Positions 114-50,959 of a DNA stretch of 64,000 nucleotides are shown in pieces. The notes below the pieces were generated by a model, which saw nothing but the letters and a program-made list of their open reading frames with translations, searched no databases and had not been told where the DNA came from. Source of the DNA: an uncultured Thermoanaerobaculia bacterium. Its GTDB lineage: Bacteria > Acidobacteriota > UBA4820 > DSQY01. The stretch's first letter is position 1, and each line of letters opens with the position of its first letter. The DNA is taken from positions 1-64,000 of the forward strand of contig CAZPSH010000008.1 of the NCBI GenBank assembly GCA_964589625.1, written 5' to 3'. Position numbers and translations under genes: made by a program.

Positions 114-139
114 GGAGGCCCCTCCGAAGAGGGGCCTCC
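114..139 (-). terminator. Perfect palindromic hairpin GGAGGCCCCTC-CGAA-GAGGGGCCTCC, 32 nt downstream of the peroxiredoxin stop
   Basis: 11-bp perfect inverted repeat with a 4-nt loop read directly from the sequence. It sits just 3' of the minus-strand prx ORF. There is no clear U-tract. Confidence 0.45.
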
Positions 140-170: not shown

Positions 171-773
171 CTATTCGTCGGGTTTCCAGACCTTCCACAC
201 GTTGCCGGCGAGGTCGGGGCTCACCTTGAGGGTGGGCTTCCCGGGCTCCCATCCGGCGGGGCACACCTCCGCCCCCTTGGTCTGGCGCACGTGCTGGAAG
301 GCCTGGAGCTGGCGGATGGACTCAGTGACCTTTCGCCCCACGGGTGGGGTGAGGATCTCGATGGCCTGGACGACCCCGTCGGGATCGATGATGAAGCGAC
401 CGCGGACATCCACGCCACCGGCCTCGTCGTAAATCCCGTACACCGATCCGATCTTCCCGCCCGCATCTGACAGCATGGGGAAGGGGAATCCTCCTTTGAC
501 CATCTTGGAGAGTTCCTGCTCCTGCCAAATCTTGTGGACGAACCGGCTGTCCGTGCTGCAGGACAGGACCTGGACTCCCAGCTTCCTGAATTCCCCGGCC
601 TTGTCGGCGACCGCCGACAATTCGGTGGGTCAGACGAAGGTGAAATCGCCCGGGTAGAAGCAGAGAAGGACCCACTTCCCCCGGAAGTCCGACAGCTTGA
701 TGTTCTTGAAGCCCCCCTTGTGGAAGGCCGACGCCTCGAAGTCCGGGGCCTCTTTCCCAACCATCACCGCCAT
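171..773 (-). CDS. 2-Cys peroxiredoxin (AhpC/Prx1 type) with an in-frame TGA (630-632) at the peroxidatic Cys position; predicted selenocysteine peroxiredoxin
   Basis: ORFs 630..881 and 171..620 are in the same frame, separated only by TGA. The joined protein reads ...[24 protein letters not shown]... and matches the FYPLDFTFVCPTE motif. The resolving Cys is present near the C-terminus (VCPAGW). RBS AAGGAGGG lies 5 nt before the ATG at 773. Confidence 0.8.
601..620 (-). ncRNA. SECIS-like mRNA hairpin (8-bp stem UUGUCGGC/GCCGACAA, loop GGUC) starting 10 nt 3' of the in-frame UGA
   Basis: The stem-loop was read directly from the sequence. Its spacing and the G-containing apical loop fit the bacterial SECIS architecture. 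Confidence 0.6.
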
Positions 774-997
774 TCTGCCCTCCTTTCCCGCGGGGCCCGG
801 TGGCCCCACCGCTCCCGCTTCCGGCTTCGGGACCAGAGGCCCCGCAGCCACGGACACGCACCCCTTCAACTTTTCCGTCATGGCACCTCCTATGAGCGTT
901 GAACCTCAACCGTCGAGATCTCCCAGCCCAAGCCTCGTGGCTCCCTGCTTTGGTCTTTCCCCTTCCAACGCACGAATGCCCTCGGAGCCGACCCTCC

Positions 998-2377
998 CTA
1001 GAGGCAGCGCATGAAGGCTACGAGGTCCTTCTTCTCCTGGGGTGTAAGGTGCAGCTGTTGGACGATGTTGAAGTACTCGACGGTGTCCTCCAGGGTGAAG
1101 CAGCGCCCGTCGTGCAGGTAGGGCGGCGAGTCCTTGATTCCTCGGAGAGGGAAGGTCTTGATGGGACCGTCGTGGGCCATCATCATGCCGTTCACCATCT
1201 CTTGTCTGTAGAAGCGCTCCGCCATCAGGTTGTGCATCGAGTTGTCGGTATAGTAAGGAGCGGGATGGCAGCGGGCGCACTGCGCCTTGCCGCTGAAGAG
1301 CCTCTCGCCCCTCAGCTCGGAAGGCGTGGCCTTGGCCGGGTCCAGTTCGCCGTAAATGTTGAGCTTGGGTGCCGGGGGGAAGTCGAGGATCTCCAGAAAC
1401 TCGGCCATGAAGTGCACCTGGCTGCCTCGCTCCAAAATGTTGACTCCTTTCTTCGTGGCCATGCAGATGTCGCCGTCGAAGTAAGCGGCACGCTGTTCAA
1501 ACTCGGTGAAGTCCTCCACCGTCTTGAGTGCGCGCTGGGACCCGAATAGGGCCTGGATGTTGACTCCCCGAAGGGTCGGCGTCTCGATGCGGTGGCGGTA
1601 CTCCTGAGGCCGGATGTCGCCCACCAGATGCGTGGCGCCGTTCGTGTGGCCGTTGGCGTGGCAGTCGAAGCACGTGACCCCCAGCATCCCGTCCGCGCGG
1701 TCCGTTCGCCGGTCCTCCGTCGCGTTGAACTGCTGTTGCGGGAACTGGGTGACCAGCAGGCGAAGTCCTTCAAGCTGTTTTGGGTTCAAGATGCCGTTGA
1801 AGATTTCGTAATAGTTGTTGATGGTGATGAGCCGCCCCTTGGCCACGTCGCCCAAGTCCGGCCTCGTCGTGAGGTAGATTGCCGGCACTGGATCGGGCAA
1901 GACCGCTTCGGGCAGGTCGAAATCCACGTCGAAGCGAGTAAGCCGGGGAAGCAGCTTGAGCATCATGTCGGGGAAGAGCATCCCCCCTTCGGCGTGGTCC
2001 GGGAAGGGAAGCGGCTTGTAGGGAAACAGCCCCTTCTGCCGGATCTGCTCCGGCGTCATCTGGTCGAGCTGGTCCCAGGTCGTTCCGCGGAGGTTCGCGG
2101 TGGGCCCGACGGGCACCGGCTTCCCGCCGGACATCTTCAGGTTCGGGTCGACCTTGACATCGAGGATGTACCTCGAGGCGAGCAAATCGGCGTGTTCCTT
2201 TGCGCGCTCGGGCTTGACCGCCAGGCGGGAGGCCTTGATTTGCTCGAAGGTCGTAATCTGGTCGGTCGGTCCGTAACTCGATACGACTGGCCCCGTTTGG
2301 GCGAACAGCCCGACGACTCCCACGGCCAGGGCCGCGAGGCCGAGCCACGCGGCCTTTGCAAAGATCTTCAACGACAT
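998..2377 (-). CDS. ccp: Di-heme cytochrome c peroxidase family protein with signal peptide
   Basis: Two CxxCH heme motifs (CFDCH, CARCH), an N-terminal signal-like segment and overall CCP/MauG-like sequence. RBS AGGAGGA upstream of the ATG. Confidence 0.8.
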   Translation of the reverse strand: MSLKIFAKAAWLGLAALAVGVVGLFAQTGPVVSSYGPTDQITTFEQIKASRLAVKPERAKEHADLLASRYILDVKVDPNLKMSGGKPVPVGPTANLRGTTWDQLDQMTPEQIRQKGLFPYKPLPFPDHAEGGMLFPDMMLKLLPRLTRFDVDFDLPEAVLPDPVPAIYLTTRPDLGDVAKGRLITINNYYEIFNGILNPKQLEGLRLLVTQFPQQQFNATEDRRTDRADGMLGVTCFDCHANGHTNGATHLVGDIRPQEYRHRIETPTLRGVNIQALFGSQRALKTVEDFTEFEQRAAYFDGDICMATKKGVNILERGSQVHFMAEFLEILDFPPAPKLNIYGELDPAKATPSELRGERLFSGKAQCARCHPAPYYTDNSMHNLMAERFYRQEMVNGMMMAHDGPIKTFPLRGIKDSPPYLHDGRCFTLEDTVEYFNIVQQLHLTPQEKKDLVAFMRCL

Positions 2378-2799: not shown

Positions 2800-5487
<2,688 letters not shown>

Positions 5488-5968: not shown

Positions 5969-7441
5969 TCAGGCTCCGGGCACTTCCTCGAAGATCTCGT
6001 CCCGGTCCAGCTCCTCCCAATGGAGGATGGACAGGCGACGGATTTCGCGGAAGTACGCGGGGGTCAGGTTGCCGAATCGCTCGACGGCCACGCGAATGTC
6101 AGATTCGATGCGGAGGCGCACCGCCTCCTTCAACCGAAGCCGGAGACGGTCGCCACCCCGGACGAACTCCGCCTCAGGCAAAGTTCCGCCCTCCCGGTTC
6201 ACCCGGATCGTGCCACGGCCCACGGTGGCCCCCGTGGAGACCTGGAGGCCGTCGTTCATGCAGCTCAAAGGGGGTGAGTCGCCCGCGAAACTCAGGACCT
6301 CCACCTCGTCGAGGGCGGCTCCAAGGCGCTCCCGGGCGTAAATCCCCATCTTCACCCCCACGAGGGAGTACGTGCCGAGGTGGCCGTGGAGTTCGTTCGT
6401 CAAGACCGCCGCCCTCCACTCCTCGCCCCCATGGCGGGCGAGGATCCGGGAGACCGACCCCTGAAGGTCGGGACGAAACTGGTCCGGCGAGGTTGGAAAG
6501 GCCGACAGGCCGACGGGGGCCGTTTCGGGCAGTCCTTTCCGTCCGTCCCCTTCGACCACGCGGAGCCAGAGAGATCTACCGGCGGCGTGGTCCCACCGGT
6601 CGAGGGTCCGTACCGTACTCCCTTGAGGCGGATCGAAGGCGGCCAAGTCGGGAGAGGCCGCGCAGAGGGCCACCGCCTCGTCCCAGGAGCGAAAGTGGCC
6701 CTCTCGGATCTTCTCCCGGACGCCGGGGGCCCCGAAAAGGGTCGCCAGGAGCCGGGCCGCAGGCGTAGGAGCGCGCTCCAGGCGCAGGAGAATCCCTTCA
6801 TCGAAGAGAAAGGTCTCCCCTTCCTCCAGGCGGACGGAGAGGACGGGGAGGTCCGAAGCGAAGAGCCGCCGGGCGGAGTCGACGTCCGCATCCCGATTCC
6901 AGCAAGCCTCGTCTCGCCCGGGCGCCGATCCGTAGAACCAAACCTCTCGGATCCCGGGGGCCAAGCTCGGCTCGTCCCGCAGCAGGCCAGCGAGGTTGGT
7001 GGCGGGTCCGAGGCACAGGTAGGTCACCTTGTGTCCCGATGGGGAAAGCAACCGGGCCAAGACGTCCGCGGCGCGCTCGGGGGGGGCGCCGCGGGCCGGG
7101 GCGAGGGAGGACCAGGCCAGGGAGTCCACGACGGCCCTCCACGGTGGGGTTGGAGCGTCCACCGGGGTTCCCGCGCCCACGGGGATTCCCGTTCTGTCCA
7201 TCTGAGCGAGGATTTGCAGGACCCTGCGTGCGGAGATCTCAGGGGACCCGCCCTCGCCCGAGGTCACGACCGCCTCGACGCGGACGGCGGGGCTGGCGAG
7301 AAGAAAGGCCAGCGCGCGAACGTCGTCGGCGGCCAAGTCCGTGTCCACGATAACGGGAAGAGGCCCTCCGTGGGCGGCGGCGGGCCGGGGCAGGAGGCTC
7401 CAGAGCAGGGCGGCGGCGGCGATGGCGAGATTCCTTCGCAT
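5969..7441 (-). CDS. Secreted fusion protein: nucleoside-hydrolase-like (IU-NH) N-domain plus FmdE-like C-domain
   Basis: Signal peptide (MRRNLAIAAAALLWSLLPRPAAA). IVDTDLAADDVRAL resembles the IU-NH DXDXXXDD motif. The C-terminal HGHLGTYSLVGVKMG...SCMNDGLQVSTGATVGRG matches the FmdE-domain pattern, with some cysteines replaced. Confidence 0.6.
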   Translation of the reverse strand: MRRNLAIAAAALLWSLLPRPAAAHGGPLPVIVDTDLAADDVRALAFLLASPAVRVEAVVTSGEGGSPEISARRVLQILAQMDRTGIPVGAGTPVDAPTPPWRAVVDSLAWSSLAPARGAPPERAADVLARLLSPSGHKVTYLCLGPATNLAGLLRDEPSLAPGIREVWFYGSAPGRDEACWNRDADVDSARRLFASDLPVLSVRLEEGETFLFDEGILLRLERAPTPAARLLATLFGAPGVREKIREGHFRSWDEAVALCAASPDLAAFDPPQGSTVRTLDRWDHAAGRSLWLRVVEGDGRKGLPETAPVGLSAFPTSPDQFRPDLQGSVSRILARHGGEEWRAAVLTNELHGHLGTYSLVGVKMGIYARERLGAALDEVEVLSFAGDSPPLSCMNDGLQVSTGATVGRGTIRVNREGGTLPEAEFVRGGDRLRLRLKEAVRLRIESDIRVAVERFGNLTPAYFREIRRLSILHWEELDRDEIFEEVPGA

Positions 7442-7730
7442 GCCTTCAGGCTCCTCCGCAGGCGGGGTTGGCGTCCCCCGAGCCGGTGGGCGCGGGCGGA
7501 AGATCGATCTTACCACCGGAGCCGGGCCCTCCCCTCCTCCGTCTCACGGCTGAGCCCGTTCTCATCTCAAATGTGAGATCGCCTTGGAGTCGAACCGGGG
7601 CCTTTCGGCTCCGATCGAGCAATCGTTCGACCTTGCTTTGTATGGCGAAAGCGGCTGTGACCCTAGCGGCGGATGCTCCTTGGCACACCCCCTGCAATGA
7701 GGTGAGCGACAGGCGAAGGAGGGTAATCCA

Positions 7731-10290: not shown

Positions 10291-13029
10291 TCACCGGGCC
10301 TTTGGCAGGTCCGGGGCGGTGCGGGGAGCCAGAAACCTCCCCTCAGGGTCGCAGGGTTCGGGCTCGGGCAGTCCGTCCTCCCGGAGTTGGGAAAGGACGG
10401 CGGCCCGGTCTCCCACGAGAACGACCGTCAGCGAATTCCAGTCGAACAGCCCGGACCGGGCGGCGGCGTTCACCGCTCCGGGTTCGAGGGCTTCGAGCGC
10501 GGCGCTCGCGGATGGGAGGGAGTCTGCCGGGCGCCGCGCCGAAAGAAGGTCCGACAGCGTTCCGGCGAGTCCCCCCGCCGTCTCGGCCGCGGAGAGGAGG
10601 TCGAAGCGGAGGGACCGGGCGGCCTTGGCCGTTTCTTCCGGGGTCACGTCCCCCGAGGCCAGGCGATCGAATTCCCTGCGGAATTCCACCAGGGCCTTCC
10701 CGGTCACGCCCGTCTGAACGGCCGAGTAAGCAAGGAGCCTGCTCTGGCCGCCGTCTTCCAGAAGGAGACTCCGGGCGCCGTAGGAGAAGCCGTGCTTCTC
10801 GCGGATGTTCTGCATGAGCCGGCTCGTGAAGGTTCCGCCGAGGACCGAGGTGGCGCAGGCCCGGGCCGCCCGGTCCACATCGCTCGGGGGAGGGTCGGCG
10901 GGCCTCAGGCACAGGAGAAAAGTCTGGGGCGCGCCGGGCCGGTCCACCAGGATCAGCCTTCCCTTGGGTTTGGGGGTGGGTGCGGAGGCGAGGGTGGTTG
11001 GGGAGAAGGCCTTCCAATCCGCGAAACGCCGGTCCAGTTCTGATTTCAGGGTGGACGGTTCCACGTCCCCAGCGAAGACAAAACGGCACCGTGAGGGGTC
11101 CAGGAGGGTTCGGTGGGCCGACCGGGCATCGGCGGGAGTGAGTGTCCTGAGGGTCTCCTCGAAGCCCTCCGAAGGCCGGCCCCGCGGGTCGTCTCGGCCA
11201 TAGGTCGCGGCTTTCGCCACGAGGCTGGCCACGCGCTGGGGATTCTCGGGACGCGCGCGCACCGAGTCCAGCGCCTGGGCCCGCTCCCGCTCGAAGTCCG
11301 CGTCCGCGAGGGCGGGTCTGAGCAGTGCGTCGGCAAAGAGGTCCAGCGTGGGGGCGAGACGGGTAGCGAGCCCTTCGACCGTCACCGTGAGGTCTCTCCA
11401 TCCCGACCGGGCTTCGACGGAGGCACCCAGAGTGTCCAGGGCGTCCGCATACGCGGCCGCATCCCGGCCCGCCGCCCCCGAGGTGAGGAGCGCGGAGGTC
11501 AGGGACGCCAGGCCGGCCTGGGATGGCGGGAAGAGGTTGTCCCCGCCCTCGGCCACCAGCACGCCCGAAACGAGCCCCGTACCCGGGCGGGGCGCTACGT
11601 AGAGGCGGGCTCCGCAGGCGAGATCCATCTCCACGGGCACCGGCAGCCGCGCCGCCCTCTCCGGAAAGGGCGGGGGTATGGCGTCGAGGACTGCGGGATC
11701 GGGGGCCTGAGCCTCAGGCAGGACCCGCAGGTCCAGGCGTCCCTCCCCCAACACCTTCTCGCACCACGTGCGCACCTCTGCTCCAGGCGCGTCCAGCCAC
11801 CGGCGGAGGTCGCGGCGGAAGGAGTCGGGGTTGCCGAAGGCCCACTGATAGGCGTTGATCTGGTCCGCGCGCTCCTGGAGGCTCTCCATCCGACGAAGGA
11901 ACCGAGCTTCGATCTGGGCCTTGACGCGCTTCATCTCGGCTTCCGAGGGGTCCTCCCTCCTCAGGAGGTCGATCTCCTCGAGGACTGCCCGCTTGATGCG
12001 TTCCAGATCGCTCCCTTGGGATGCGGTGACATCCACCGTGAATTCGCCGTTCAGTCGCCGAGAGTCCTGGTAAACGTTGACCTCCTGGGCCAGCCGTTCG
12101 TCGAGGACCAGGCGTCGGTGAAGGCGGGAGGCGGCCCCGCCCCCCAGGATCGCGGCGGCCAGATCCATGGGGGCGTCCCCTTCGGCATAGGCGGCCGGGG
12201 AGGGCCAAATGAGGAAGAGACGGGGGAACTCGACCTGGTCCGAAATGAGCCTCCGTACCTCGCTCCTGAGCGCGGGCCCCGGTGCGGTGGGCCGGGTGGG
12301 AAACGGGGCGGCGGGAACCGCCCCGAAGAGCCGGGTCACAAGGTCTCGAACGGCGGCGGGATCGAAATCACCCGCCACCACAAGGGTGGCATTGGAGGGA
12401 ACGTAGTAGGTGGCGAAGAAGTCCTTCACGTCCTGAAGCGTGGCTGCCTCGAGGTCCTCGTGGCTTCCGATGACCGGGTGACGGTAAGGGTGTCCTTCGG
12501 GGTAAAGGGCCTCGGGCACGGCGAGGTATGCGCGGCCGTAGGGGGCGTTCTCGTAGCTCTGGCGCCGCTCGTTCCGCACGACGCTCCGCTGGAGGTCCAG
12601 CTTCTCCTGCGTCATGGCCTTCCCCAGGCCCTCCATCCGATCCGCGTCCAGCCAGAGGAGGGTGGGAAGGAGGCTCGAGGGCCCCCACGAAAAGTAGTTG
12701 GTTCGGTCGTTGCTCGTGGAGGCGTTGTTGGCGCCGCCCCCGTTCTCCATGAGGATGTCGAAGCGGTTCCCCGGCACCCGCTCGGTGCCCATGAACATGA
12801 GGTGTTCGAAGAGGTGCGCGAATCCCGTGCGGCCCGGGGCCTCGTCCTTGGAGCCGACGCCGTACCAGAGGTTGACGGTGGCTTGGGGGAGCCGATGGTC
12901 CTCGTGGAGGATCACGGTGAGGCCGTTGGAGAGCGTGAACGTCTCGCACGGGGCGTCCTGGGCCATTAGGTCCGGGGCGGCCAGCGCCAGGAGGAGGGCG
13001 GCACAGATCACATCACGGAGGCGGGGCAT
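10291..13029 (-). CDS. M16-family zinc peptidase (pitrilysin/insulinase-like, tandem M16 halves), secreted
   Basis: HLFEHLMF inverted zinc motif (HxxEH), signal peptide, ~910 aa. Confidence 0.85.
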   Translation of the reverse strand: MPRLRDVICAALLLALAAPDLMAQDAPCETFTLSNGLTVILHEDHRLPQATVNLWYGVGSKDEAPGRTGFAHLFEHLMFMGTERVPGNRFDILMENGGGANNASTSNDRTNYFSWGPSSLLPTLLWLDADRMEGLGKAMTQEKLDLQRSVVRNERRQSYENAPYGRAYLAVPEALYPEGHPYRHPVIGSHEDLEAATLQDVKDFFATYYVPSNATLVVAGDFDPAAVRDLVTRLFGAVPAAPFPTRPTAPGPALRSEVRRLISDQVEFPRLFLIWPSPAAYAEGDAPMDLAAAILGGGAASRLHRRLVLDERLAQEVNVYQDSRRLNGEFTVDVTASQGSDLERIKRAVLEEIDLLRREDPSEAEMKRVKAQIEARFLRRMESLQERADQINAYQWAFGNPDSFRRDLRRWLDAPGAEVRTWCEKVLGEGRLDLRVLPEAQAPDPAVLDAIPPPFPERAARLPVPVEMDLACGARLYVAPRPGTGLVSGVLVAEGGDNLFPPSQAGLASLTSALLTSGAAGRDAAAYADALDTLGASVEARSGWRDLTVTVEGLATRLAPTLDLFADALLRPALADADFERERAQALDSVRARPENPQRVASLVAKAATYGRDDPRGRPSEGFEETLRTLTPADARSAHRTLLDPSRCRFVFAGDVEPSTLKSELDRRFADWKAFSPTTLASAPTPKPKGRLILVDRPGAPQTFLLCLRPADPPPSDVDRAARACATSVLGGTFTSRLMQNIREKHGFSYGARSLLLEDGGQSRLLAYSAVQTGVTGKALVEFRREFDRLASGDVTPEETAKAARSLRFDLLSAAETAGGLAGTLSDLLSARRPADSLPSASAALEALEPGAVNAAARSGLFDWNSLTVVLVGDRAAVLSQLREDGLPEPEPCDPEGRFLAPRTAPDLPKAR

Positions 13030-50120: not shown

Positions 50121-50863
50121 CAGGTAGCTCGTCCGAAGGCGCTCACGTGCGCGAACAGAGAGCGGGCGAATAAATTGAAAGTCAGCTCCTGCGCGGGCTC
50201 TTGGTAGGCGCCCCTGGCGCCCGTGTCCTTGGCCGAGAGCAGGAAGCACGAGGAGCTGTAGTGTCTCTCTCTCAGAAGCTTCCTGCAGAAGAGCTCGTAC
50301 CGCTTGGCGTAGGAGGCGTTTTTGAATTCGGGAAAGACATCGAAGTGGGGCTCTTTCACCCGGACCGGGCTGCGGGACTTTGCGCAGTCCTCCAGCAGGA
50401 ACAGATAGCCGAGCCAAGGCTTCACGGTGGTATTGAAGGCGCCTTCACGGTAGGCGGTCCAGAGGTCCAAGGCGCTGCCCATGGCCTCCTCGGTGCGGTT
50501 ATTGAAATTGTTGCCGAAAGAAGGCCCGACCTGGGACTTGGCTTCGAGCGCCAGCACGAGCTGGCCGTTTTGGACTACGAGGAGGTCCCACTCTTTGGTG
50601 GGCCTGAAGAACCCTGGCAGCTCGAGGGTCGTCCTGTAGAAGACGTGCTCGGACTCAACCCCCGCTCGTTGGATGATGTCCGCAAGTAGGCGGATAAAGC
50701 CGTCCATCTGGGCGCCGCCCGTGACGGCGGCCCTCGCCCCCTGGTCCTGCCGGCCGGCGGTCTGTTGCCGCTGAGCTTGGCCCGAGCGAGTAGTCCAGTA
50801 GTCTTTCACGGCGGCCGCAACGCGTTGATCAAGGCTTGCGAGGATCTCGTCTAGAGATGCCAT
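50120..50863 (-). CDS. Putative type II restriction endonuclease (PD-(D/E)XK fold)
   Basis: EWDLLVVQNGQLVLALEAKSQ contains a D...E-x-K arrangement. Immediately upstream of, and coupled to, the MTase. Low GC3. Confidence 0.6.
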   Translation of the reverse strand: MASLDEILASLDQRVAAAVKDYWTTRSGQAQRQQTAGRQDQGARAAVTGGAQMDGFIRLLADIIQRAGVESEHVFYRTTLELPGFFRPTKEWDLLVVQNGQLVLALEAKSQVGPSFGNNFNNRTEEAMGSALDLWTAYREGAFNTTVKPWLGYLFLLEDCAKSRSPVRVKEPHFDVFPEFKNASYAKRYELFCRKLLRERHYSSSCFLLSAKDTGARGAYQEPAQELTFNLFARSLFAHVSAFGRAT

Positions 50864-50959
50864 GCGCACGTCCCCCCTTTGCTCACCGTAAGCGTATCAC
50901 TCTCTCAGCTGGCCTTGTCCAGAAGCTCGCGCACCTTCTTTTCGTTGGTGAGGGCCTTG

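Follow-up and report, generated by a model that had tools for sequence, protein, structure and literature searches.

A Probable Bacterial SECIS Hairpin in the Selenocysteine-Containing Peroxiredoxin Gene prxU of an Uncultured Thermoanaerobaculia Bacterium

Introduction

Peroxiredoxins (Prx) are among the experimentally verified selenoprotein families of bacteria, and the members that contain selenocysteine (Sec) are listed with the motif TxxU (PMC13188914); they have been catalogued in Anaeromyxobacter (a myxobacterium), Geobacter, Syntrophus, and others (PMC1794560). Here we describe a gene of this kind, prxU, in a 64,000-nucleotide stretch of DNA from an uncultured Thermoanaerobaculia bacterium (positions 1 to 64,000 of contig CAZPSH010000008.1, assembly GCA_964589625.1; this whole stretch is called the window below), together with a small RNA hairpin in its coding sequence, which is very probably the selenocysteine insertion sequence (SECIS) of the gene.

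Several published descriptions of bacterial SECIS elements are available for comparison. The model of the bSECISearch type has a loop of 3-9 nt, a stem of 4-16 bp, a distance of 16-37 nt from the UGA to the loop, and a minimum free energy (MFE) of at most -7.5 kcal/mol; a G is also required at loop position 1 or 2, and the nucleotide after it is mostly G or U (PMC13188914). Another description gives a stem of 6-8 bp and puts the conserved G of the loop about 20 nt past the UGA (PMC4605307). In the element of the formate dehydrogenase H gene fdhF, G23 and U24 are conserved in the loop, and G23 and the bulged U17 are the reported contacts of SelB (PMC8659212). On the ribosome, SelB reaches across the intersubunit space, shuts out release factor 2 (RF2), and brings Sec-tRNA(Sec) to the UGA (PMC5311926). 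Finally, remnant SECIS-like hairpins downstream of Cys codons, left after conversion of Sec to Cys, have already been described (PMC1794560, Figure 4).

The prxU Gene and Its In-Frame UGA

The prxU gene lies near the beginning of the window, and the following features were read from its sequence and translation.

171..881, minus strand: prxU, predicted typical 2-Cys peroxiredoxin with Sec at the peroxidatic position; 236 codons plus the TAG stop at 173..171.
881..879, minus strand: ATG start codon.
886..891, minus strand: AGGAGG, a putative Shine-Dalgarno-like sequence 4 nt upstream of the ATG at 881..879.
630..632, minus strand: in-frame UGA, the predicted Sec codon, in place of the peroxidatic Cys in the motif T-F-V-U (TxxU).
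261..263, minus strand: codon of the likely resolving Cys, in the motif E-V-C-P near the C-terminus.

The open reading frame (ORF) is interrupted by a single in-frame TGA (632..630), which falls exactly on the catalytic Cys of D-F-T-F-V-[U]-P-T-E. Started at the ATG at 881, the product of 236 residues reaches 380.4 bits with the NCBIfam equivalog model NF040737 (peroxi_PrxU), whose cutoff is 270, and at full length it covers positions 3-232 of the 233 of this profile. Its score against AhpC TIGR03137 is 191, below that model's own cutoff of 272. With Cys put at the TGA, the product matches Pfam AhpC-TSA (3.6e-38) and, in addition, the 1-cysPrx_C domain. The GC content at third codon positions (GC3) is high on both sides of the TGA (0.81 and 0.86). 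Judged by its sequence, the gene is a member of the curated Sec-containing peroxiredoxin family PrxU, and a peroxidase activity with selenium is predicted for its product. The Cys of E-V-C-P is presumably the resolving one, as would be expected from the general architecture of typical 2-Cys peroxiredoxins.

The Hairpin Downstream of the UGA

The spacer and the parts of the hairpin, as found in the sequence and, for the hairpin, in its predicted fold, are the following.

621..629, minus strand: spacer CCCACCGAA of 9 nt between the UGA and the hairpin, comprising the Pro-Thr-Glu codons CCC ACC GAA.
613..620, minus strand: 5' arm of the candidate SECIS, UUGUCGGC.
609..612, minus strand: apical loop of the candidate SECIS, GGUC.
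601..608, minus strand: 3' arm of the candidate SECIS, GCCGACAA.

The initial annotation, made from the sequence alone, had described here a perfect 8-bp stem with a 4-nt loop that starts 10 nt after the UGA. This geometry is borne out on the minus strand: all eight pairs are Watson-Crick, the first stem nucleotide is the 10th past the A of the UGA, and the distance from the UGA to the loop is 17 nt (the 9-nt spacer plus the 8-nt arm). In the folding check named in the same annotation, the hairpin was found in both the MFE and the centroid structure of an 81-nt context, with a z-score of only -1.8 for the segment as a whole. In isolation, the hairpin has an energy of -12.1 to -12.2 kcal/mol.

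All parameters of the hairpin lie within the published bSECIS ranges (loop of 4 nt with the sequence GGUC, stem of 8 bp, 17 nt from the UGA, -12.1 kcal/mol), and the stem-loop stands directly 3' of an in-frame UGA inside the coding region. Its loop G's are 18-19 nt past the UGA. A bSECIS-style scan of all TGAs on both strands, in which open frames of high GC3 on each side of the TGA and a hairpin obeying the published SECIS rules were required, returned the prxU site as its sole match in the window. Perfect hairpins of 8 bp and 4 nt as such are more frequent here than expected, with 11 observed versus about 3 under a first-order Markov model; therefore the structure at 601 is not unique. They are found at positions 117, 601, 18156, 20111, 37818, 42955, 47651, 48981, 51787, 52812, and 57068. 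The chance that such a hairpin starts 5-15 nt past a given codon is about 5e-4 under the Markov model, and about 2e-3 when simply scaled to the 11 hairpins observed.

The single-sequence MFE contains an extended lower stem that pairs the UGA region with downstream codons. It was rejected as part of the element because it is not conserved (covariation of 0.149 versus 0.148 in shuffles). Likewise, the covariation test revealed no conserved pairing that involves the spacer nucleotides 621..629.

The closest well-characterized counterpart is the SECIS of E. coli fdhF, whose sequence we checked (it occurs within fdhF, at 100% identity, in over 5,400 genomes of this species). Both elements are small apical hairpins that lie inside the coding sequence and follow the UGA directly, and both have the loop GGUC, which, counted from the U of the UGA, occupies nt 22-25 in fdhF and nt 21-24 here, one nucleotide closer; the G and U of this loop are those read by SelB in fdhF. 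The minimal fdhF element is a bulged 17-nt structure, whereas the stem in the window is a perfect one of 8 bp (7 conserved). Unlike fdhF, the element of the window lacks a conserved lower stem that would involve the UGA region, and its host protein is a peroxiredoxin rather than formate dehydrogenase H. Since the U17 bulge is absent, we file the element as a bacterial SECIS and not as one of the fdhF type. In comparison with the published PrxU SECIS (NF040737) nothing substantive differs: the family is the same, Sec occupies the same T-x-x-U position, the in-frame UGA is immediately followed by a hairpin in the coding region, and 79 other genomic loci have this hairpin's register and loop.

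Conservation among Sec-Encoding Orthologs

A scan of one genome per species yielded 80 related loci with 67-89% identity, distributed over more than a dozen phyla (Myxococcota, Acidobacteriota, Thermodesulfobacteriota, Chloroflexota, Ignavibacteria, Zixibacteria, Spirochaetes, Actinomycetota, and others). TGA stands at the Sec codon in 79 of the 80, the exception being locus L016 with TGC. All of them have the hairpin at this same register; its stem shows compensatory changes, and its loop is of the form R-GU-Y (R, purine; Y, pyrimidine), that is, GGUC or AGUU.

For the quantitative analysis we used a gap-free alignment of 81 sequences (A1), comprising 74 columns around the Sec codon, in which both the spacer length and the 17-nt distance from UGA to loop are invariant. 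Over the eight stem pairs and the two loop-flank positions, 88.6% are paired, compared with 76.7% in shuffles. The covariation score is 0.365 versus 0.143 in shuffled alignments, none of 500 shuffles reaching the observed value, and it falls to 0.08-0.12 when the 3' partner is slid by 1-3 columns. Pairs 26-32/37-43 are kept, with compensatory changes; the outermost pair (620:601) is formed in only 39 of the 81 sequences, and therefore the conserved stem has 7 bp.

Three pairs connect third codon positions only, and all of them covary: pair 27:42 (GC 55, AU 6, CG 6, UA 6), pair 30:39 (GC 64, AU 9, GU 4, CG 2, UA 1), and the loop-flank pair 33:36 (GC 43, AU 37, GU 1). The loop tetranucleotide is GGUC in 43 sequences, AGUU in 37, and GGUU in one, its central GU being invariant. 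In terms of codons, the Val of the loop is encoded by GUC or GUU only in 81/81 sequences, and the codon before it, for Ala in 77 and for Thr in four, ends in G or A in 81/81.

In a neighbor-joining tree, the prxU gene of the window groups with loci from Myxococcota and Polyangia metagenome-assembled genomes, the closest being L001, L002, L004, and L005. One sub-clade of PrxU (L036, L045, L059, L060, L062-L064, L068, L074, and L077) has U-A-T-E in place of U-P-T-E after the Sec codon and usually Ile or Val for Leu at the first stem codon; hairpin and loop are retained in it.

Coding-Sequence Control and Cys Orthologs

The contribution of the protein sequence to the hairpin was estimated by resampling synonymous codons, with each peptide fixed and with the codon usage of each gene's own. 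The Sec genes have an observed mean energy of -9.85 kcal/mol versus an expected -4.7 kcal/mol (mean z -2.06; Wilcoxon 4e-15), and the corresponding values for the gene of the window are -12.2 and -4.8 kcal/mol. The stem of the Sec genes is thus about 5 kcal/mol more stable than the peptide demands.

Of the 120 best-matching proteins in the database, 82 have W at the Sec site (TGA mistranslated), 12 have Cys, and 24 are C-terminal fragments of 149 aa. The DNA of nine of the 12 Cys proteins and L016 constituted a set of ten Cys orthologs. Their hairpins have a mean energy of -6.6 kcal/mol, compared with -4.67 kcal/mol expected from their peptides, a difference that is not significant (p=0.065), and they are weaker than the hairpins of the Sec genes at -9.85 kcal/mol (Mann-Whitney p=0.008). 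The R-GU-Y loop is kept in four of the ten, versus 79 of the 80 Sec genes, the 80th having a G.U wobble. Moreover, Ile replaces the loop Val, which removes the loop G, in 3/10 Cys orthologs and in 0/80 Sec genes. Stem and loop are under RNA-level selection that is independent of the encoded peptide and specific to Sec-encoding genes.

In L028 (2241 and 3141), a Cys-peroxiredoxin paralogue, YPLDFTFVCPSE, is located about 900 nt upstream of the Sec-PrxU gene of the same genome, with no hairpin downstream of the paralogue.

Discussion

The hairpin at 620..601 of the minus strand is, with high probability, the bacterial SECIS of prxU that causes its UGA to be read as Sec; binding of SelB and insertion of Sec are predicted from sequence comparison. 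We adopt this reading because the product belongs to PrxU, TGA and hairpin occur together (79 of 80 loci), synonymous sites bear the mark of RNA-level selection, this selection is relaxed in Cys orthologs, and the structure fits the published descriptions. Selection on the element is apparent both as covariation among the UGA orthologs and as relaxation among the Cys ones. The initial annotation had proposed a SECIS for an in-frame UGA of a prx gene, and these data support it, with the covariation across orthologs well above the shuffled and slid controls. The comparison with fdhF, which it had named as a check, holds for the loop sequence and, nearly, for the position, and fails for the bulged U. 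It had also warned that Cys orthologs with the same hairpin would speak for mere coding-sequence structure; this test comes out mostly in favor of a SECIS, as the ten have weaker stems on average and only four keep the loop, with a near-intact hairpin in a few (L016 and L089).

A number of observations weigh against this reading. Searching 37 ORFs of the 64-kb window for domains revealed no selA, selB, or selD gene, and no tRNA, including tRNA-Sec, is present there. Rfam has no gathering-level match in the window, and nothing overlaps 601-632 even at E <= 10 (positions 400-900 scanned). The bulged U17 of fdhF, needed by the SelB of E. coli, has no counterpart in the hairpin. With default scoring, RNAalifold reports no consensus structure for the orthologs; this is because incompatible pairs are penalized, and either RIBOSUM scoring, which yields a stem of 7 bp with a loop of 4 nt at -20.1 kcal/mol, or the use of five sequences recovers the stem. 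The orthologs are phylogenetically non-independent, so the p-values are overstated. Part of the conservation of the loop GU could be at the protein level, since this invariant GU forms positions 1-2 of the Val codon. The peptide itself (L-S/A-A-V-A-x-K in GC-rich codons) has an intrinsic hairpin potential, namely the expected -4.7 kcal/mol of the resampling. Finally, the Cys orthologs L016 and L089 have strong hairpins (-12.5 and -12.2 kcal/mol, respectively).

The last of these points has a plausible explanation in the history of the family. Four Cys orthologs (L016, L084, L088, and L089) have 5-7 bp of the same stem in the same register, and their residual hairpins are best read as decaying remnants of SECIS elements after conversion of Sec to Cys, because the Cys forms are nested inside the Sec clade. 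They occur at no fewer than five separate positions within it, and the nearest relative is a Sec protein for 8/10, according to a neighbor-joining tree without bootstrap that is indicative only; L016 and L089, the two with near-intact hairpins, adjoin Sec forms. Remnants belong to the Cys relatives, whereas the gene of the window retains both the UGA and the intact hairpin.

The least improbable of the alternatives, itself very unlikely, regards the hairpin as a mere by-product of encoding Leu-Ser-Ala-Val-Ala-Asp-Lys in GC-rich codons, devoid of any RNA function, the SECIS being elsewhere or unneeded. It can account for a good deal: the resampled peptide still forms about 5.4 of the 8 pairs at -4.7 kcal/mol, Cys orthologs with the same peptide average -6.6 kcal/mol and include two at about -12, and the window is rich in perfect hairpins (11 versus about 3). 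It does not account for the additional 5 kcal/mol or so of the Sec genes (z -2.06), for the covariation of three pairs at third codon positions, or for the restriction of the loop codons to GCR/ACR followed by GUY in 81/81 sequences. Nor does it explain why Cys orthologs lose the loop rule (4/10 keep it) and tolerate the replacement of Val by Ile, and no other conserved structure was found nearby. The synonymous-site analysis has largely refuted this explanation.

Even less probable is that the hairpin works without SelB, either as a ribosome pause or roadblock that lowers termination by RF2, or in the control of prxU expression or mRNA stability. SelB binding is a prediction, the bulged U of the E. 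coli type is absent, and no Rfam SECIS model matches, all of which such a role would accommodate. However, a generic roadblock needs no invariant GU with covarying flanks at a fixed 17 nt from the UGA in 80 genes, and these features match both the published consensus of SelB-dependent SECIS elements and the loop of fdhF.

The two remaining explanations are hardly credible. If the TGA were a real stop, owing to a pseudogene, a split gene, or an assembly error, the ORFs 881..633 and 620..171 would not be one protein; public gene callers do split such genes (hence 24 of the 120 best matches are C-terminal fragments of 149 aa), but TGA occupies the catalytic codon in 79/80 loci of many phyla, GC3 is high on both sides (0.81 and 0.86), and the read-through product matches the PrxU profile end to end. 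A genome-wide reassignment of UGA, for instance to Trp or Gly, with no need for a SECIS, would agree with the W deposited in 82/120 database homologs, but TGA is the main stop codon of the window, ending 24 of its 36 other high-GC3 ORFs, and therefore a reassigned code is excluded. Moreover, the window has about 68% GC, whereas the known lineages with a sense UGA have genomes of low GC content, and a Trp or Gly at the position in question, that of the peroxidatic Cys, would destroy Prx catalysis.

Returning to the SECIS, we infer its mode of action by applying the general SelB mechanism (PMC5311926) to the prxU hairpin. The stem-loop would form 9 nt downstream of the UGA (632..630) while the mRNA is being translated. 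The C-terminal winged-helix domain of SelB, loaded with GTP and Sec-tRNA(Sec), would bind the apex of the hairpin and read the exposed G and U of R-GU-Y. With the UGA in the ribosomal A site, the tethered SelB complex would deliver Sec-tRNA(Sec) and keep RF2 out. In this way Sec would become the peroxidatic residue of a thioredoxin-dependent 2-Cys peroxiredoxin, with translation running on to the TAG at 173..171. The genes selA, selB, selC, and selD would be expected elsewhere in the host genome.

The uniformity of the element permits a further, tentative proposal, toward which we lean slightly less than toward its opposite: the PrxU SECIS may form a distinct and unusually uniform sub-class of bacterial SECIS elements, in which the spacer is always 9 nt long, the stem has 7 bp, and the two ends of the R-GU-Y tetraloop covary in the Watson-Crick manner. 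In a sub-pattern of the bSECIS consensus, paired N1 and N2 enclose G(G/U)N, whereas the covarying flanks in PrxU enclose GU only. The covariation of these flanks (GC 43, AU 37, GU 1 of 81) suggests that the SelB-bound form would display only the two-nucleotide GU atop a ninth pair. A non-exhaustive literature search found no published description of the R-GU-Y loop-flank covariation for PrxU, and no open-access statement of a G22/C25 contact in fdhF was found in the literature, so the pairing of the loop flanks is put forward here on the strength of covariation. If the proposal were true, the near-identity of the element across more than a dozen phyla would imply joint horizontal transfer of the gene and its SECIS, and the SelB proteins of very different bacteria would read the same minimal signal. 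Such a sub-class would deserve an Rfam family of its own, and its compact, portable SECIS could be put to use in engineering.

The element is already known in kind, because it represents one more ortholog in a selenoprotein family, and one more case of a class of recoding signals, that have both been published: the literature covers Sec-containing peroxiredoxins, the consensus of bacterial SECIS elements, and SECIS remnants in genes converted to Cys. The sole mildly new detail is the clean G..C/A..U covariation of the loop flanks around the invariant GU. The practical significance is in annotation, as the gene is liable to be called as two ORFs or as a Trp-containing protein. The 82 W-containing proteins and 24 fragments among the 120 closest database proteins suggest that gene calling in metagenomes mis-annotates this selenoprotein systematically. 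Once the UGA and the SECIS are recognized together, the selenoprotein peroxidase is recovered at full length, and the organism can be taken as a presumable user of selenocysteine.

Genomic Surroundings

Three further features on the same strand lie near prxU.

114..139, minus strand: GC-rich stem-loop of 11 bp, GGAGGCCCCUC-UUCG-GAGGGGCCUCC, 32 nt past the prxU stop; its core is the perfect 8-bp/4-nt hairpin at 117.
998..2377, minus strand: predicted MauG/CCP-like di-haem protein of 459 aa between katG and prxU, with two CxxCH haem motifs and a signal-peptide-like N-terminus.
2800..5484, minus strand: KatG ORF, identified by domain match; 894 aa from the first start codon.

The stem-loop at 114..139 is a possible transcription terminator. 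A terminator and promoter scan of positions 1-2600 called nothing, this stem-loop, which lacks a T-run, included.

On the minus strand, KatG and the di-haem ORF, in this order, are both upstream of prxU, the di-haem ORF next to it and KatG two ORFs away. The 459-aa ORF has no Pfam match at 1e-5; its NCBIfam matches, to MauG- and MbnH-type di-haem enzymes (1.4e-10), are weak and far below the cutoffs. In the KatG ORF the peroxidase domain begins at about residue 244, and the first 160 residues or so are rich in Pro, Gly, and Arg and look non-coding; the real start of KatG is probably an internal Met. Together, the di-haem ORF, KatG, and PrxU may represent a peroxide-defense cluster on one strand. 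In addition, an Fe/Mn superoxide dismutase is encoded at about 32.6 kb. The rest of the window is ordinary chromosome, with IspG, PolA, ThyX, MnmA, Kup, pyruvate kinase, and a serine hydroxymethyltransferase-like protein.

Same-frame TGA junctions that join ORFs of high GC3, at 10291, 18123, 29511, and 38276, were considered as further selenoproteins and rejected, as they separate unrelated domains and have no qualifying hairpin. At the second of them, the segment 18123-18719 (plus strand) encodes an alpha/beta-hydrolase fragment, which matches Abhydrolase_6 from profile position 35 and lies in the same frame directly past the TGA of a 1,220-aa tricorn-like protease. None of its start codons opens a frame of at least 180 aa, nor is the TGA followed by a SECIS-like hairpin; to judge from the sequence, it may be a truncated or frameshifted gene.

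Two other loci deserve a brief mention. An XhoI-family restriction endonuclease (50123-50896, minus strand; Pfam 6.7e-92) is located inside a stretch of lower GC content (48-52 kb, 65.6% GC) and may belong to a horizontally acquired restriction-modification module. At 5972-7543 (minus strand), a single stop-to-stop frame holds an inosine-uridine nucleoside hydrolase and an FmdE domain, which could mean either that the protein is an unusual fusion or that two genes abut here in the same frame.

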